Shown here: positions 2,548 to 27,527 of the stretch, piece by piece | Position numbering within the stretch: position 1 is the first letter of the stretch | Layout of the letters: every line of letters starts with the position of its first letter | From: a virus | Taxonomy: Duplodnaviria > Heunggongvirae > Uroviricota > Caudoviricetes | Length of the DNA: 38,835 nt | Direction: 5' to 3' (one strand) | Virus record (IMG/VR): IMGVR_UViG_2734482565_000006 | Made by a program: the position numbers and the translations under genes | The notes under the pieces: generated by a model | What the model saw: the letters and a program-made list of their open reading frames with translations, nothing else | What the model was told of the DNA's origin: nothing | The model's database searches: none

Positions 2548-4602
2548 TTACGCGTTATTCACTTCCACCACGATACTGTCAATCAGTACCGGGTAAGTCG
2601 CATTTTTAGTGATATCGGTCACGCGCAACTTGTCTGCCGTAAACGTGCCGACCGGAGACTGCGACAGCATGAATGGTGTCCCGTCCTTACCATCAATGAC
2701 CGGCGTCACCTCAATACTGTTGTTACCGGCAAAACGGAAGCCCAGCGTATGCCATTCGTTATTAAATGCGCCGAATGACCCCAGCTTCGTGTTCTGCGCC
2801 GTGTTTCCTTTGTGATACATCACGTTAAGGTCTGTGGCATCGCTCTGTACGTAGAACGATGCCAGCAGGTTATGACCGGCATTTCCTTCCAGAGTAACCC
2901 CTTGCGGCAGGGCAGAAACCGGCCAGTACAGCGCCAGTGCGTACTGATTAGCCGTAAGCGCGCCATCGAGTTTAAAACGACAACTGACAAGACCACCTTT
3001 ACCCAGCAGGTCCGCACCATTACCAGCATCATGCTCAAGGTACCAGGGGGCTCTTCCTGTTTCCTTGGTCAGTTTCATTGCCTTACCCCCGCTGGCTCCG
3101 GCATCATCCACGATTTGAGCCTTGCCACCTCCGGCAGCCCAACCCTGTGGTGTCAACCGTCCTTCAGACTCAGATGCCCGGTAAGCAAATAGCGTACTCA
3201 TCGTCGTGGTGTCTGCGGGTGGCGTGGACGGTTTTGATGGTGTATCAGGTGACGGCTTCTCATCCGGTGGTGTCACGGTCTGCCCACGCATCAGTTCAGC
3301 CGTGCGCCCTGCATGGAGCATAATAGCTGAGGCCAGACGGTCTGAAATGACGCCCCTGCGTGCCCATGAGCTGAAATGGCTGTCACGCTGTGTCGAAACA
3401 AAACTGCCCTGGGTTCGGGATGCTGCACCGTAATACCCGACAGCCACAATATCCGGGTCTTCCGCCGGAGCATTCGTTGGCGTGCTCTGTCCATTCTCAT
3501 CCGTCAGGAACGGTACAAAGAAAATTTTCTGTGCTTCCTTGCCTTTGTAGCCACCGTATACTGCCTCATATTTATCGGTGCCAGCGTTTTTCCAGTAATA
3601 CGTGGTATCACCGCAAATCCACGGCACCGTGGTGGCATTTCCACTCACGCACTGCGCAGCAAGCGGAGCCAGGTCAGTTCTGAACTGCTGAACCATGGCC
3701 GTGAATAAACTATTATGCTGCTGGCTTCCTGAGGCAAGGTCTGCCTCTCCCTGCATCCAGACCACAGCCAGAAGTTTGTTTTTCGGGTTTTTCGCCAGCG
3801 CGACTTTGGTGCGGCTTACCAGGTCCTGATACAGAGGTTTACCGGCCCCCCAGCGTGAAGAATCAGCGGAAGCACCGCTGGCCTCACTGAATGAGCCGTC
3901 GGCTCCAGTGGTGAATGCTGACCCGCCACGACAACAGGGCACCAGAAGTATCCCGGCATTCTGTGGGATATAGGGAAGCAGTTTTTTGGCAATATGCAAC
4001 CCCTGACCGACAGTCCCGTACTGGCCTTTTGCCAGATCAGCTTTCGGGTGGTTTATCCCGCTCATATCCTGAACATCATGCAGGCAGTGGTCTGCCGGAA
4101 TGATGTCGTTGTATGTACACGACGTACCGTTGGGCGTTACCGTACTGCGGCGTGCCAGTTGCTTAATGCGTGGGTCCGGGCGGTCAAACGAATCCGGTAA
4201 CGGCAGCCCCTCGCCGTAGGCCATGCCATTTGACTGACCCGCGAGAATGACAACAAAGTAATATTCCGGCTCTGAACTGCTGCCATTCGTGCTACCGGAA
4301 GGCCCGGCGTTATCCGGTGCATTCCAGTCGGAGGGCGTGAGCGTTCCGGCCACGTCAGATGTGATTGGAATGATGCCAGTCACGCCTGAACTGGTGATTT
4401 CTGCACTGGGATTACCGGATACCGGCATTACCCATAATGGCTCTTTCGTGCTGAAGCGGATCACGCAGTCTGCGAAGGTGATCCCCCCTTTATTACCCGA
4501 AGGGCGGAAAGGGCTTTCAATAAATGCCACCGTGCCACCGGCAACCTTGACTGAAAACTCTCCGGGCATGGCGGAGAGCATTTTCCACTTGGAGTCTGAC
4601 AT
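2548..4602 (-). CDS. SGNH-hydrolase / sialate-O-acetylesterase-like protein (prophage NanS-p-like) with C-terminal putative carbohydrate-binding domain
   Basis: 684 aa. A central block YFVVILAGQSNGMAYGEG ... VVWMQGEAD resembles the GQSN and QGE(A/S) motifs of SASA/DUF303 esterases. It sits as cargo between gin and com-mom; the SD is weak. Confidence 0.65.
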   Translation of the reverse strand: MSDSKWKMLSAMPGEFSVKVAGGTVAFIESPFRPSGNKGGITFADCVIRFSTKEPLWVMPVSGNPSAEITSSGVTGIIPITSDVAGTLTPSDWNAPDNAGPSGSTNGSSSEPEYYFVVILAGQSNGMAYGEGLPLPDSFDRPDPRIKQLARRSTVTPNGTSCTYNDIIPADHCLHDVQDMSGINHPKADLAKGQYGTVGQGLHIAKKLLPYIPQNAGILLVPCCRGGSAFTTGADGSFSEASGASADSSRWGAGKPLYQDLVSRTKVALAKNPKNKLLAVVWMQGEADLASGSQQHNSLFTAMVQQFRTDLAPLAAQCVSGNATTVPWICGDTTYYWKNAGTDKYEAVYGGYKGKEAQKIFFVPFLTDENGQSTPTNAPAEDPDIVAVGYYGAASRTQGSFVSTQRDSHFSSWARRGVISDRLASAIMLHAGRTAELMRGQTVTPPDEKPSPDTPSKPSTPPADTTTMSTLFAYRASESEGRLTPQGWAAGGGKAQIVDDAGASGGKAMKLTKETGRAPWYLEHDAGNGADLLGKGGLVSCRFKLDGALTANQYALALYWPVSALPQGVTLEGNAGHNLLASFYVQSDATDLNVMYHKGNTAQNTKLGSFGAFNNEWHTLGFRFAGNNSIEVTPVIDGKDGTPFMLSQSPVGTFTADKLRVTDITKNATYPVLIDSIVVEVNNA

Positions 4603-22645: not shown

Positions 22646-24218
22646 CCAGCATCCCCTTCATTTCCGCAGCAAACATGGCATCACTGAGCAGCGTCATCAG
22701 GCGGGAATCATCCATTTCACGGTAAAGGGCAGGCAGGTCTGCCAGTGCCTCCGCCAGCCCCCGCGTTCTGATGACATCAATGACCGGCTCCAGCACCGGA
22801 TCGATGGCCTCCTGTAAGCGGCGGGCAGGCACCGCGTCCCCCATGTCGTCCAGTTCATCACGCGGCGTGTTTTTCGCTTCCGGCAGTCGGGCTGAAAGCG
22901 CCGTCTGTTCTGTCTTTTCCTGTTTTTCCGGTAGCGTTTCCCTGTCAGGCATGGCCGGTTCATTACTGCTCTGACGGACACGGAATATGGCTTCACCGGG
23001 CGTGGGCTGTGGAATACCGGTCTGATCCCGTACCCAGGGATCAGGAATATCCATCCCCGCACTGAGTTGCATCACCGCACTGGCTATTTTGGTGATATCC
23101 CCCGGTTCTTTGGTCTGGAAACAGATACGCGGCAGGCGACGGATATCAATGGCGTGGGCGGTGTTCAGGGCATACAGCGGATACACCAGATCGCGGTTCA
23201 GGGTTGCAGCCAGCTGGCGTAAATCAGAATCCCTGATTTCCCGGCGCACCTCGTTATGCACCTCACCCAGCGAGCGCGCGCCTTTGTCTCCGGCTTCTGT
23301 GGTCAGCGTGCCGCCGAGTATTGCTTTGGAGATGGAACGCTCACCCCACGAAATCATGGTTTCAAACGGATCGGCCTGACCGTTCGCTGCCGCCTGAAAC
23401 TCCAGCGACATCCCGGCCGGGATGATCCCGCCTGTACGTCGCCCGATATCCATCACCGCCCGCATCAGGGCACTTTTCTGCTCCGGTGTTGCCCCGGACG
23501 GGTATTTCCCGACCTTCATTGGCAGGCCGTACACCTCCAGAAATTCCGCCAGATCGCGCACGGAATAGTTTTTGAAAATGAACGGCCAGATAAGCGTTCT
23601 GACAAGCCCCGTCGCACCACCGTAGCCGGTGCGTGAACGCGACTGATGCACTATCCAGCCAAAGGGCTGAAACGCCACCCCGGCATGGCTGCCGTCACGC
23701 AGCCGCAGTTCGCTCAAATCATCCGGGTTAAGGCAGAAATGCCCGCTGTCACGCCAGCGGATGGCGCGGATGATGTGCATTTTACCGAGCATCCCGTGCT
23801 CAATTTCCATGCAGGAATAGCCCTTCAGGATGGCATCCGTGGCGTCAAACAGCATGGCATCAAACCAGTCTGCGGAATGCAGATATTCGTCGAGCATTTC
23901 CGCGTCCTTTTTCTCATTCGCGCTGGCGTTCGGTGGCGGCTCAATACTCCATGGCACCCCCTGAATGGCAAGACGTCGCTTGCCCAGCTCCGCAAAAAGG
24001 TGGGTGTCCTTTTCTTCAATATCAGCGGCCAGATCGGACTGGGCAATCAGATCGCCACGTTCAGCCCCGCGAAGGCACTGCGCCGCCCGGTTCGGGGTGA
24101 TACCCGAAGCCGGATGTTCAATATAACGGCTGGCAATCTGCGGAATATCCAGCGCGGCACTCTGCATCTCCGGGTCAAAGGAGAAAGGTTTTCCGTCAGT
24201 ATCAATGATGCGTCCCAC
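22629..24218 (-). CDS. portal protein (Mu gp29-like)
   Basis: 529 aa, directly downstream of the large terminase with a start/stop overlap. Confidence 0.85.
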   Translation of the reverse strand: MGRIIDTDGKPFSFDPEMQSAALDIPQIASRYIEHPASGITPNRAAQCLRGAERGDLIAQSDLAADIEEKDTHLFAELGKRRLAIQGVPWSIEPPPNASANEKKDAEMLDEYLHSADWFDAMLFDATDAILKGYSCMEIEHGMLGKMHIIRAIRWRDSGHFCLNPDDLSELRLRDGSHAGVAFQPFGWIVHQSRSRTGYGGATGLVRTLIWPFIFKNYSVRDLAEFLEVYGLPMKVGKYPSGATPEQKSALMRAVMDIGRRTGGIIPAGMSLEFQAAANGQADPFETMISWGERSISKAILGGTLTTEAGDKGARSLGEVHNEVRREIRDSDLRQLAATLNRDLVYPLYALNTAHAIDIRRLPRICFQTKEPGDITKIASAVMQLSAGMDIPDPWVRDQTGIPQPTPGEAIFRVRQSSNEPAMPDRETLPEKQEKTEQTALSARLPEAKNTPRDELDDMGDAVPARRLQEAIDPVLEPVIDVIRTRGLAEALADLPALYREMDDSRLMTLLSDAMFAAEMKGMLDGSGD

Positions 24219-25885
24219 TACCAGCCCCCCCGATCAAATTCATGATATGCCTCATCGTCATCACGATAACCGCCCTCCATTGCCCGCGACCGCTCCTGTA
24301 GCGCCTGACAGGCTGATTCATCCAGGATGAAGCCCTCCATGTATGACGCCCGGTTTGCCATACAGAGCGCCACGGCAAAATCACCATGGCGGCGGGCGTT
24401 CGCAGCCGTTGCGTTCTGGTCCTTCGTGCGCCCCTTGTCGATTTGCGGGATACCATTCACTACCTTCACATGGCGCAAATCATCAAGCGTGGTCTGATGG
24501 CGGGCGACGAGGATATTCTGATCTTCAAACTCGGCTTTCAGTTTTGGCATCCACTCGCCGTACCACTTCGGCGACAACATCACGCAGTCGATGATGTCCG
24601 GGCCAAAGGCCAGCAGTGCGGCCTCTGCCAGATAGCCGCCGTTACCGGTGGCGTCGAACGCCGCACCGACCAGCGCCGGAACGCGGGTCAGGATGTACAT
24701 CATCACCTGTTCCTGCTGGGCATACGGCAGGTTGCGCAGCTCCACGCGAAACACCTCGCGCTTTGCCAGGGATTCGGTGATTTCCAGCAGCACAAAGCAG
24801 GACAGGTCACCGGTGCGGGCAAAGTCTTCCCCGAAGCTGAAGCGGGAACGGGGATTTAATTTCTCTAAAAGCGGTTTTAAATGTTCTTCACACCAGGTTA
24901 AAACTTCCGATTCACGCAGCCATGCGGCACGGCTGATGAAGTTGTCCGGGGCTTCAAACGTCAGAATCGGGATGTCGCGGATCATCGCCATTTCAATAAG
25001 CGCGTGGGGGATATAGGCACCGCCGGATTTTTTCGGGATACAGCCGTATTCCTCGTCGGCATCCTCACGGGTCGGGGCGTTTTTGTAGAGATCATCACGC
25101 CATTTCTGCTCGCTTTCCGGTGACCATTCCTGATCGGTGACGTAACAGATACGACGGTACAGCCCGTCCGCAATGGCATCATCCAGGGTTATGCGGTGGA
25201 CGCTGTAATCCTTGCGCCCCTCGCGGGCTTCCTGAATGTACTGATTAAACAGATTATCGACGCCGTTATGCGTGGAGATAATACGCACGCGCGCGCCCCA
25301 CATAGTGAGCGCCATTGCCGCCTTGAGAAGCTCATCCAGTGACTCGTGGAACGCGGCTTCATCAATCACCACATCCCCCTGAAGGCCGCGCAGGTTTGAC
25401 GGACGGGAAGACAATGCCTGAATTTTGAATCCACTGTTCGGAAAGCGGATCATGTAGGTCAAAATTTCTTCTTTTTTATCCCGATCCCAGAATGTCTGCT
25501 CATACACATCAGCATCTGCCAGCTGGTTAAAGGCACGGGAGAACAGCGCGCAGGCAGAAATATATTCCAGCGCCATCTCCTGCTTTGATCCCACATAAAA
25601 CACATTGCGGCCACCACGACGCTTCGGTTTTGCAGCAGTAATGACGTTACGCCCGGCTTCCGCCCAGGTAAGACCGGTGCGGCGGGATTTCTCCGCGATG
25701 CAGACCTGACTTTCATCTGCAAACCAGCGGGCCTGATAATCCAGAAACACCGGCATATCACCGGGCAAATCAAGGCTGTCCGGCACATCCACGCCCAGCA
25801 GGGCTTTTTCACCTGACAGATCAATTTTGCGGGGAGGCGTCATTTGCATCAGTGAAGGCGACGTTTCTCTGGCTTTGTTCATCAT
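24218..25885 (-). CDS. terminase large subunit (Mu gp28-like)
   Basis: 555 aa; its position and size fit the terminase ATPase-nuclease subunit; start ATGATG overlaps the stop of the upstream small ORF. Confidence 0.9.
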   Translation of the reverse strand: MMNKARETSPSLMQMTPPRKIDLSGEKALLGVDVPDSLDLPGDMPVFLDYQARWFADESQVCIAEKSRRTGLTWAEAGRNVITAAKPKRRGGRNVFYVGSKQEMALEYISACALFSRAFNQLADADVYEQTFWDRDKKEEILTYMIRFPNSGFKIQALSSRPSNLRGLQGDVVIDEAAFHESLDELLKAAMALTMWGARVRIISTHNGVDNLFNQYIQEAREGRKDYSVHRITLDDAIADGLYRRICYVTDQEWSPESEQKWRDDLYKNAPTREDADEEYGCIPKKSGGAYIPHALIEMAMIRDIPILTFEAPDNFISRAAWLRESEVLTWCEEHLKPLLEKLNPRSRFSFGEDFARTGDLSCFVLLEITESLAKREVFRVELRNLPYAQQEQVMMYILTRVPALVGAAFDATGNGGYLAEAALLAFGPDIIDCVMLSPKWYGEWMPKLKAEFEDQNILVARHQTTLDDLRHVKVVNGIPQIDKGRTKDQNATAANARRHGDFAVALCMANRASYMEGFILDESACQALQERSRAMEGGYRDDDEAYHEFDRGGW

Positions 25886-26130
25886 GCTTTACCTGTCAGA
25901 ATGCTTTTGATTCGGGACTCAAGCTCTTCAGTCATCACGTCCACGCCGCTCAACTCATCAGTGGCAGCCTCTGCCAGCAGCGAATGCAGTTGTTCCAGGG
26001 ATATTTCCCCGGCAATGCTGAGTTCAGTCAACTCACGACATACCTTTATGGTTTCAGGAGGTAACTGTGTTGCAAGACTGAATGCTTTCTGATGGGCACT
26101 GCTCATCAGTGAGCGGTTATCTGTTGCCAT
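25882..26130 (-). CDS. small protein whose C-terminus duplicates the small-terminase C-terminal tail
   Basis: 82 aa with AGGAGGTG SD; C-terminus AEAATDELSGVDVMTEELESRIKSILTGKA versus TerS C-terminus ANAVTDELRGVDGMSEQIEFRIRQMLLGKA. The DNA is also similar (25950..25980 vs 26200..26230). Translationally coupled to TerL. Confidence 0.6.
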   Translation of the reverse strand: MATDNRSLMSSAHQKAFSLATQLPPETIKVCRELTELSIAGEISLEQLHSLLAEAATDELSGVDVMTEELESRIKSILTGKA

Positions 26131-26140
26131 GATTCACCTC

Positions 26141-26722
26141 CTACGCCTTACCCAGCAGCATCTGCCTGATACGGAATTCGATCTGCTCGCTCATGCCATC
26201 CACGCCGCGCAACTCATCGGTGACCGCATTCGCCATCTCTTCAGCAAATGCGGCCCGGATTTCTTTTTCACGCTTAATGCTGCGCTCGGCGGCACTTTCT
26301 GCACGCTGTGCCGACAGGAGGATGTCCTTAATAAGGCGCATATCCACATCGCTGTCGCTGTTCAGGGATTCGGTGGCGGCACGCAGACGGCGGTACATCA
26401 GGGCACGGGACATCTCCAGAATCAGTGCCGTGGTTTCACCGGTCGGCTTATCCCCCAGTTCGGCCATCATGGCTTTTGTCTGCTCGCGTAAATCACGCAG
26501 ATTACGGGCAATCAGCTCATTACGGGAGGCTTCCCGGCTGATGGCCGCCGGTGAGAGCTGCTGCTCTTCCGGCAGACCTGCTTCACGGATCAGACGGTTG
26601 ATTTCCTCGCGGATCTGGACCTGCGTCAGACGTTTTTCACGCAGCATTTCCAGCAGCGGCTTACGGATGCTGTCGGGGAGCAAATCCACCTTGCGTACAC
26701 GGCCACGCGCTGGCTTATCCAT
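26141..26722 (-). CDS. terminase small subunit (Mu gp27-like)
   Basis: 193 aa; N-terminal basic DNA-binding region; immediately upstream of the terminase large subunit region. Confidence 0.75.
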   Translation of the reverse strand: MDKPARGRVRKVDLLPDSIRKPLLEMLREKRLTQVQIREEINRLIREAGLPEEQQLSPAAISREASRNELIARNLRDLREQTKAMMAELGDKPTGETTALILEMSRALMYRRLRAATESLNSDSDVDMRLIKDILLSAQRAESAAERSIKREKEIRAAFAEEMANAVTDELRGVDGMSEQIEFRIRQMLLGKA

Positions 26723-26724
26723 CG

Positions 26725-27015
26725 TTACCCCCTTGCGCGTGGTTTCTTCACACCCGGAACGGTGGCGCGGCCTTCCGCCACATCCTGACCCCGGCCGGTC
26801 AGTTCAGCGATGAAATAACCGTTAACAAGCGTGCGCTTACGCACCAGTCCCTGCTCGGCAAGCCAGGCAATGTGGGTATGAACGGTGTCGCGGGACACGC
26901 GGTGACCGTAATCATCCAGGCAGTCCTGAAGCACGGATTCGCCCAGTTCGCCGTTGTAATCCGCCAGCGACCGCAGAATGACAAGACGCTGATCTTCAGT
27001 AATGAAATCACTCAT
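26725..27015 (-). CDS. conserved Mu-like late protein (gp26 position), possible winged-helix
   Basis: 96 aa ORF upstream of the terminase small subunit. Confidence 0.5.
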   Translation of the reverse strand: MSDFITEDQRLVILRSLADYNGELGESVLQDCLDDYGHRVSRDTVHTHIAWLAEQGLVRKRTLVNGYFIAELTGRGQDVAEGRATVPGVKKPRARG

Positions 27016-27319
27016 TGTGTTTTTTCCTTACAGCCTGCTCCAGCAGCAGTTCGTTCTGATGGGAGACGGATTTCAGGGTGGCATTGGTGGCCTTAAGCTC
27101 ACCGCGCAGGGTGGTGATTTCGATATTGAGTCTGTTCACCTCCTGCTGCGTGGGCAGGCCGGAAATCCGGCTCTCCACCCGCTCAACCCGGTCGGAGAGT
27201 TTTTCAAAGGCCTCGCGGGGGACAAAGGTTTTGCGCATCAGCGCCATGAAGATCCCCCCGGCTGTGGCCGTTGCCGACAGGATCGGCACGACATAATCTT
27301 TAACGATGCTGACCCACAT
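27008..27319 (-). CDS. membrane protein (Mu gp25 position; possible lysis accessory)
   Basis: 103 aa with an N-terminal hydrophobic helix (VVPILSATATAGGIFMALM) and a C-terminal coiled-coil-like region. Confidence 0.5.
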   Translation of the reverse strand: MWVSIVKDYVVPILSATATAGGIFMALMRKTFVPREAFEKLSDRVERVESRISGLPTQQEVNRLNIEITTLRGELKATNATLKSVSHQNELLLEQAVRKKHNE

Positions 27320-27527
27320 GACCGGCCTCCATGATGTTCTGGCAGTTCACACAACGGATGGCATCCGGCACGGCAACCAGACGGGCAGCCGGAATGTCAC
27401 CCCCGCAGTCCGCGCATACACGCCTGCCCGGTGTCTCCGCCACCCGGCGCTTACGTGTCAGCCGGTCACAAAGGGCGCGTTCTGTTGCACGCTCCATGAC
27501 TGCCTGAGCACAATCTGAATCATCCAT
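27300..27527 (-). CDS. TraR/DksA-type C4 zinc-finger protein
   Basis: CADCGGDIPAARLVAVPDAIRCVNC four-Cys motif; start taken at the internal ATG 27527 preceded by AAGGA. Confidence 0.65.
   Translation of the reverse strand: MDDSDCAQAVMERATERALCDRLTRKRRVAETPGRRVCADCGGDIPAARLVAVPDAIRCVNCQNIMEAGHVGQHR

Follow-up and report, generated by a model that had tools for sequence, protein, structure and literature searches.

The small open reading frame between the two terminase genes of this E. coli Mu-like prophage, here called ORF82 for its 82 residues, is a chimera of a prior small gene of that position and the tail of the small terminase, because the tail alone is duplicated from terS and residues 1-55 are homologous to genes of the same slot that have no such tail. 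The window is the whole 38,835-nt stretch that was analyzed (IMG/VR record IMGVR_UViG_2734482565_000006). We consider it somewhat probable that ORF82 is a lineage-restricted accessory gene, left by an out-of-register recombination that kept the 3′ end of terS in frame. The protein is already catalogued, as a hypothetical protein in the PGAP annotation and as a full-length match to phrog_30922 (PHROG 30922), a family of no assigned function (E = 6.9 × 10−52, residues 2-82 on profile positions 2-82 of 82). Its chimeric nature and its allele series appear to be undescribed, and nothing on a phage-encoded mimic of a TerS tail came up in the literature searched. ORF82 is a case of the familiar phage mosaicism that creates genes at junctions, not a new kind of system or a new packaging component.

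Gene order and translation signals

The gene block around ORF82 is all on the minus strand and follows the order of the Mu late operon. It holds a gene for a DUF2730 (gp25-like) protein, a winged-helix gp26-like gene (26725-27015), and gp27 (26141-26722), which encodes the Mu-type small terminase (TerS) of 193 aa, matching PF11985 (Phage_Mu_Gp27) with E = 3 × 10−33 over profile positions 1-173 and phrog_426, the terminase small subunit, with E = 1.8 × 10−54. ORF82, with 82 codons and a stop (25882-26130), comes 10 nt after gp27 and overlaps terL by 4 nt. TerL, a large terminase of the Mu gp28 type with 555 aa (24218-25885), is encoded upstream of a Mu-type portal gene (PF06074) and matches phrog_2, terminase large subunit, with E = 5 × 10−43. 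In phage Mu, just 7 nt separate gp27 from gp28, in agreement with the statement in the preliminary description that Mu has no gene between its terminase genes. The TerL identity of this Mu-type protein is recognized only by PHROGs; there is no Pfam or NCBIfam match, PGAP calls the window gene a hypothetical protein, and the RefSeq record of Mu gp28 (NC_000929 12899-14554) carries the label "putative portal protein".

The stop codon of gp27 is embedded in TAGGAGGTGAATCATG and therefore forms part of a near-consensus Shine-Dalgarno site for ORF82 (GGAGGTGA, 26134-26141), which is read from the sequence, overlaps that stop, and is 5 nt upstream of the start codon. This site is identical across the B, C and D alleles that are defined below. 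The start codon itself (26128-26130) is GTG rather than ATG in 6 of 11 haplotypes, including the commonest, with the Shine-Dalgarno site unchanged. At the other end, the ORF82 stop and the first ATG of terL overlap as ATGA (25882-25885, by sequence and PGAP coordinates), which reads GGTAAAGCATGATGAAC on the coding strand, with stop and start written as GCATGATGAAC. The second ATG of terL is the PGAP start, with a 1-nt overlap to the ORF82 stop (TGATG), and the same TGATG junction joins gp27 to terL in relatives without the ORF. No Shine-Dalgarno site of its own is obvious for terL, which abuts the ORF82 stop codon. Over 25500-27400 on the coding strand, there is no sigma-70-like promoter site and no convincing terminator, the sole terminator match being weak and inside terL.

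The coupling of ORF82 to terL that had been proposed agrees with the ATGA overlap. As part of the late operon, ORF82 would probably be translated from its strong Shine-Dalgarno site, and termination at ATGA/TGATG would probably hand ribosomes on to terL, as termination of gp27 would in the relatives without the ORF. These sequence signals make it probable that ORF82 is translated and that ribosomes re-initiate at terL.

The two parts of ORF82

The C terminus of ORF82 had been described as a copy of the TerS C terminus in both protein and DNA, and this stands on proper alignment. BLASTP aligns ORF82 residues 52-82 to Gp27 residues 163-193 without a gap, with 18 of 31 positions identical (58%), 24 of 31 positive and E = 3 × 10−10, and the alignment score is reached by 0 of 2000 shuffles. 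The DNA identity to the tail of the neighboring gp27 is 67% over 93 nt, with a local alignment score of 43, where a similarly sized shuffled control gave 17.2 ± 2.1. The upstream copy of the repeat, Gp27 residues 163-193 (MANAVTDELRGVDGMSEQIEFRIRQMLLGKA), lies at 26144-26236, and the downstream copy, ORF82 residues 56-82 (ATDELSGVDVMTEELESRIKSILTGKA), lies at 25885-25965. The tail motif is also C-terminal in Mu gp27 and in Salmonella, Citrobacter and Vibrio-phage homologs; ORF82 has the motif to its closing GKA and is 53% identical to Mu gp27 over the tail. What ORF82 shares with the Mu Gp27/DUF3486 family (PF11985, phrog_426) is these last ~27-31 residues, with the pattern TDEL-x-G-x-D-x-M-[ST]-E-x-L-E-x-R-I-x-x-I-L-x-GKA, and an end that, as in that family, overlaps the terL start codon. 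The ORF82 tail keeps 13 of the 17 invariant or near-invariant Gp27 tail positions, hydrophobic face included, and is changed at four Gp27-conserved positions (R172S, G176V, S178T and L190T). Its DNA is less close to the tail of the neighbor, at 67%, than to the gp27 tail of related prophages with no slot ORF (A type), at 77% nucleotide identity. The A-type tail is canonical (LESRIK-IL-GKA), and the tail of the neighboring, B-type gp27 is derived (IEFRIRQMLLGKA).

Neither Gp27 nor any other part of the window detectably resembles ORF82 residues 1-51 at the protein or DNA level, the local score to Gp27 residues 1-162 being 25 versus 26.2 ± 4.5 for shuffles (p = 0.59), so the duplication is limited to about 27-31 codons. 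ORF82 has no match to PF11985 at E < 0.1, and it is not a TerS. Unlike Gp27, it is without the N-terminal DNA-binding helices and the long helical core; in its AlphaFold2 model the tail is preceded by just three short helices, with no helix-turn-helix-like region or oligomerization core. We considered whether ORF82 might be a truncated or duplicated C-terminal half of terS and rejected this, as residues 1-51 are unlike Gp27 in protein or DNA in any frame. The suggestion in the preliminary description that ORF82 is a remnant of a partial terS duplication is therefore right for the tail, which does derive from terS, and wrong for the N-terminal 55 residues, which belong to an independent slot family.

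The N-domain of ORF82, residues 1-55 (25966-26130), is predicted to be a three-helix unit, and is assigned by homology to the tail-less slot genes. The slot, after the gp27 stop and before terL, is common to the window, to locus L010, and to loci L016, L038 and L042. BLASTP matches residues 1-55 to ORF67 (P0012) with 54% identity and E = 2 × 10−20; ORF67 is a 67-aa protein of another Mu-like prophage (L010), where it is preceded by the same gp27 tail and the same Shine-Dalgarno site. A more distant match is ORF65 of Citrobacter, with 35% identity and E = 4 × 10−7 by BLASTP, and hhalign joins the N-domain to the ORF65 family (P0133-P0148; 65 aa, in Salmonella and Citrobacter prophages) with a probability of 75% and E = 2.7 × 10−5. 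The phrog_30922, ORF67 and ORF65 proteins thus share with ORF82 both the gp27-terL slot and a homologous N-domain, and a Gp27-like tail is absent from ORF67 and ORF65. ORF67 differs further in being followed by a 120-nt spacer, with terL uncoupled; ORF65 ends in ...VKKV, yet it is ATGA-coupled to terL. An HMMER profile search of 1.84 billion representatives finds four clusters only, and the slot family is therefore narrow. Searches of Pfam, NCBIfam and PDB sequences with ORF82 give nothing meaningful, and Foldseek against the PDB gives no match below E = 2.

Alleles at the junction and the origin of ORF82

The gp27-terL junction is a variable spot in an otherwise highly similar backbone. In allele A, found in most E. 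coli copies, there is no slot ORF and gp27 overlaps terL; several Salmonella-like IMG/VR loci are likewise without a slot ORF. Allele B, with ORF82, is that of the window and its close relatives. Allele C (L010-L015) has ORF67, then the 120-nt spacer and a different TerL leader. Allele D (L022, L027) is C minus the ORF, with the remnant MATDWFSYE*; codons 1-4 of the slot ORF run straight into the bases immediately before the C-type terL start (~3080-3130 in both loci), and in this allele nature has removed the slot gene cleanly. Allele E has ORF65, ATGA-coupled to terL, in Citrobacter loci L016 and L042 and in L038. Allele F (L041, ~3085-3350) has an 87-aa ORF with only its first eight residues (MQQKYDWY) in common with ORF65 and the rest unrelated, so it is another cassette swap at this junction. 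Alignment of the alleles also places the downstream end of the divergent cassette within terL, as a variable TerL N-terminal leader (MMNKARETSPSLMQMTPP, 25832-25885 in the window) that differs among alleles A, B, C/D and E and gives way to conserved sequence from RKIDL onward.

This prophage type is carried by 231 of 5426 complete E. coli genomes, and ORF82 is in 25 of the 231. The conservation in close relatives that the preliminary description looked for is therefore largely missing, as about 89% of the related prophages in E. coli have no ORF82. ORF82 is dispensable, given this count and the natural alleles that have no ORF or only a deletion remnant. The C-type allele has no match among the complete E. 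coli genomes, and a search of genome contigs with Gp27 gives two loci only. In E. coli JE86-ST05, JE86-ST02 and strain 48, the ORF82 prophage is present in 2-3 copies, or the gp27 region in up to four, which suggests that these Mu-like elements are active now or were recently. ORF82 resembles morons and the ORFs of mosaic junctions in being small and optional, polymorphic for presence or absence, and placed between conserved genes where modules meet; it is unlike morons in that no promoter or terminator of its own was found, and in being embedded in the late operon, coupled to terL, and in part copied from an essential neighbor.

ORF82 and ORF67 are collinear until ...LLAEA in the one and ...LVAHA in the other, after which ORF82 continues as the Gp27 tail. 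The switch point is an Ala-x-Ala codon triplet, which reads GCGCACGC in ORF67, GCGAACGC in gp27 and GCAGAGGC in ORF82, with junction microhomology of GCGcACGC in ORF67 to GCGaACGC in gp27. The B-type TerL leader is A-like, as is the ORF82 tail. From these features we infer that two alleles of enterobacterial Mu-like prophages recombined out of register. The left parent would have been a C-like genome with gp27 and a small, fast-evolving slot gene, and the right parent an A-like genome with a canonical gp27 tail overlapping terL. A single microhomology-mediated crossover at the Ala-x-Ala triplet would then have made one reading frame of the ~55-residue N-domain and the terminal ~27 codons of terS, keeping the native stop/start overlap. 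The frame that stays open to the terL junction would be the most likely reason why this recombinant survives.

A search of IMG/VR and JGI metagenomes for a donor of the ORF82 tail and B-type TerL leader gave further ORF82 loci only; no donor phage with a Gp27 tail matching the ORF82 tail DNA turned up, so the right-hand parent is a putative one. The tail was probably gained and not lost, since the outgroup ORF65 is tail-less and parsimony then favors this polarity of B versus C. That the ORF-less allele A arose lately from B, by a deletion between its tail repeats, is unlikely, since the A-type tail fits the Salmonella/Citrobacter/Mu consensus and, over its 3′ half, departs from the ORF82 tail at about 8 of 39 nt.

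Selection and a possible role at TerL

The slot family is truly protein-coding. Omega is 0.30 for the N-domain of ORF82 versus ORF67 (Fisher p = 0.0009) and 0.33 for the ORF65 proteins of L016 versus L038 (p = 0.003); the slot proteins are small, helical and fast-evolving at these values of about 0.3, and the flanking gp27 and terL have omega of 0.01-0.08. Polymorphism was counted among 30 copies of the B population in 11 haplotypes. ORF82 is in frame in 30 of the 30, one haplotype having a 6-nt in-frame deletion. ORF82 as a whole has 18 synonymous and 28 nonsynonymous variants, for a neutral expectation of 13.6 to 31.2 and a probability of 0.10 of seeing as many synonymous ones or more; its tail has 5 and 5, for an expectation of 3.1 to 6.7 and a probability of 0.16. 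In gp27 at the same loci the counts are 47 and 3 (expected 16.0 to 33.1, probability <10−4), and in the gp27 tail 7 and 0 (expected 1.9 to 4.9, probability 2 × 10−4), the protein sequence of the Gp27 tail being invariant in all B- and C-type loci. From 7:0 in the one tail and 5:5 in the other, it follows that the TerS tail is strongly constrained and the copy not demonstrably so. ORF82 polymorphism, tail included, is indistinguishable from neutral at the low power given by 46 variants. In the comparison of the ORF82 tail with its parent tail, omega is about 0.3 (p = 0.04), which together with the 13 retained positions of 17 hints at residual constraint beyond an open frame.

Residue 72 in the tail (25915-25917) has an S/F polymorphism, TCC/TTC, in which F is the commoner. 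With F, the ORF82 tail reads LEFRIK and resembles the IEFRIR of the neighboring Gp27 tail. Gene conversion from one repeat to the other might account for this, and so might a single-base change by chance.

The AlphaFold2 model of ORF82, of modest confidence (pLDDT 70), has helices at 3-21, 25-39 and 45-60, a low-confidence loop at 60-67 and a helix at 68-79. The Gp27 model, of low confidence (pLDDT 63), begins with short N-terminal helices and continues with the long helices of the core, which a loop at 172-178 separates from a last helix at 179-189. In these models both tails look like a loop followed by a tethered short amphipathic helix, of 11 residues in ORF82, with the pattern L-x-x-x-I-x-x-I-L. 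We know of no biochemical characterization of a TerS-TerL interface of the Mu type. In lambda and in P22, TerS binds TerL through its C-terminal region, and the TerS-binding site of P22 is in the first 23 residues of TerL (reviewed in PMC9611059). By analogy, it is plausible that the tail is a TerL-docking peptide, and the borrowed tail of ORF82 may dock where the TerS tail does. Because ORF82 is dispensable and weakly constrained, any effect on terminase would be modulatory at most, and ORF82 might act as a modulator of TerL, though with weak support.

In its direct form, the copied tail would occupy the TerS-docking site on TerL as a competitor made in step with TerL, tuning or delaying holoenzyme assembly or packaging initiation. 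The conserved tail positions that ORF82 keeps, the modeled helix tethered behind a flexible loop, the lambda and P22 precedent, the tail-versus-parent omega, and the strong Shine-Dalgarno site with coupling to terL all agree with that. Against them stand the near-neutral 5:5 of the tail beside 7:0 in the real one, the four substitutions at Gp27-conserved positions, and the many sister prophages and deletion alleles that do without the gene, and we hold such competition to be rather unlikely. A tail-swap version, in which ORF82 mimics the TerS tail to dock its N-domain on TerL, and so times or biases packaging initiation or masks TerL from host sensors, is doubtful to a slightly greater degree. 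A further proposal makes ORF82 an adaptor that repairs a mismatch, its A-like tail bridging a C-type Gp27 tail (IEFRIRQML) to an A-like TerL N terminus through the N-domain. The divergent cassette does run from the last part of the gp27 tail through the slot ORF and into terL for ~18 codons, the ORF82 tail and the B-type leader are both A-like, and the P22 site is at just that end of TerL. The adaptor is nonetheless disfavored, since one Gp27 tail works beside unlike TerL leaders, whether or not the slot encodes a protein; in C and D it goes with a leader quite different from that of B, and D has no slot protein. The strong purifying selection expected of an essential adaptor is also not seen. 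We regard it as very improbable. Covariation between tail and TerL leader was considered as well and is unsupported, there being too few allele types and one Gp27 tail with two leaders.

ORF82 might instead be a functionless scar, an untranslated or inconsequential leftover of recombination, without consequence for terL expression too. The near-neutral polymorphism would fit, as would the narrow distribution (4 clusters among 1.84 billion representatives) and the frameshifted or shortened variants in assemblies (P0010, P0011, P0003 and P0004). The intact frame of all 30 copies speaks against it, although neutral drift would give zero stops with a probability of about 0.3. So do the near-consensus Shine-Dalgarno site conserved across alleles, the omega of about 0.3 for the N-domain family, significantly below 1 over deeper divergence, and a terL that abuts the ORF82 stop with no obvious Shine-Dalgarno site of its own. 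A mere scar is thus distinctly unlikely in our estimation, and the chimeric accessory gene is the reading that we retain.

If ORF82 does dock on TerL, the closest functional analogy is to the small proteins that bind terminase subunits, Gpi of the satellite PLE, which binds TerL (PMC11417361), and Rpp of PICI, which binds TerS (PMC6739421). Those are encoded by parasites of phages and ORF82 by the phage's own late operon, no kinship in sequence is to be expected, and mimicry of a TerS tail is not the mechanism described for either. A tail that binds TerL would be a natural domain graft mapping the Mu-type TerS-TerL interface, its ~27-residue loop-helix would be a portable TerL-docking module of Mu-type small terminases, and the alleles with no ORF, a tail-less ORF, a tailed ORF and a remnant, on a near-isogenic backbone, would be a ready test set. 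Even without binding, ORF82 would indicate that out-of-register recombination between phage alleles can build an in-frame gene from the essential 3′ end of a neighbor, and that translational coupling can hold an ORF open with little sequence constraint. Either way, the current understanding of packaging is unchanged.

Codons 2-18 of ORF82 (26077-26127) are hypervariable, with pS of 0.27 versus 0.05 in codons 18-51, and strain M18 (L002) has MEKNIRALIISARHEAFN in place of the MATDNRSLMSSAHQKAFS of the window, the M18 block partly resembling ORF67. Slot-gene alleles have probably recombined further here. A small inverted repeat covers ORF82 codons ~5-11 (26098-26117, no strand assigned), and hairpins of differing sequence are found at codons ~5-12 of the slot ORF in the window, in L010 (5016-5038) and in L002 (~2620-2645), of which that of L010, the C type, alone clearly exceeds shuffles in stability (z = −3.1). 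In the C type, the 120-nt spacer (L010 5181-5300, minus strand) has an antisense ORF of 39 aa (MMLQTQLELLERYLSG...) with a good Shine-Dalgarno site, and the 10-bp hairpin at L010 5016-5038 is terminator-like and lies downstream of it on that ORF's strand; the ORF could be a tiny opposite-strand gene within the cassette.
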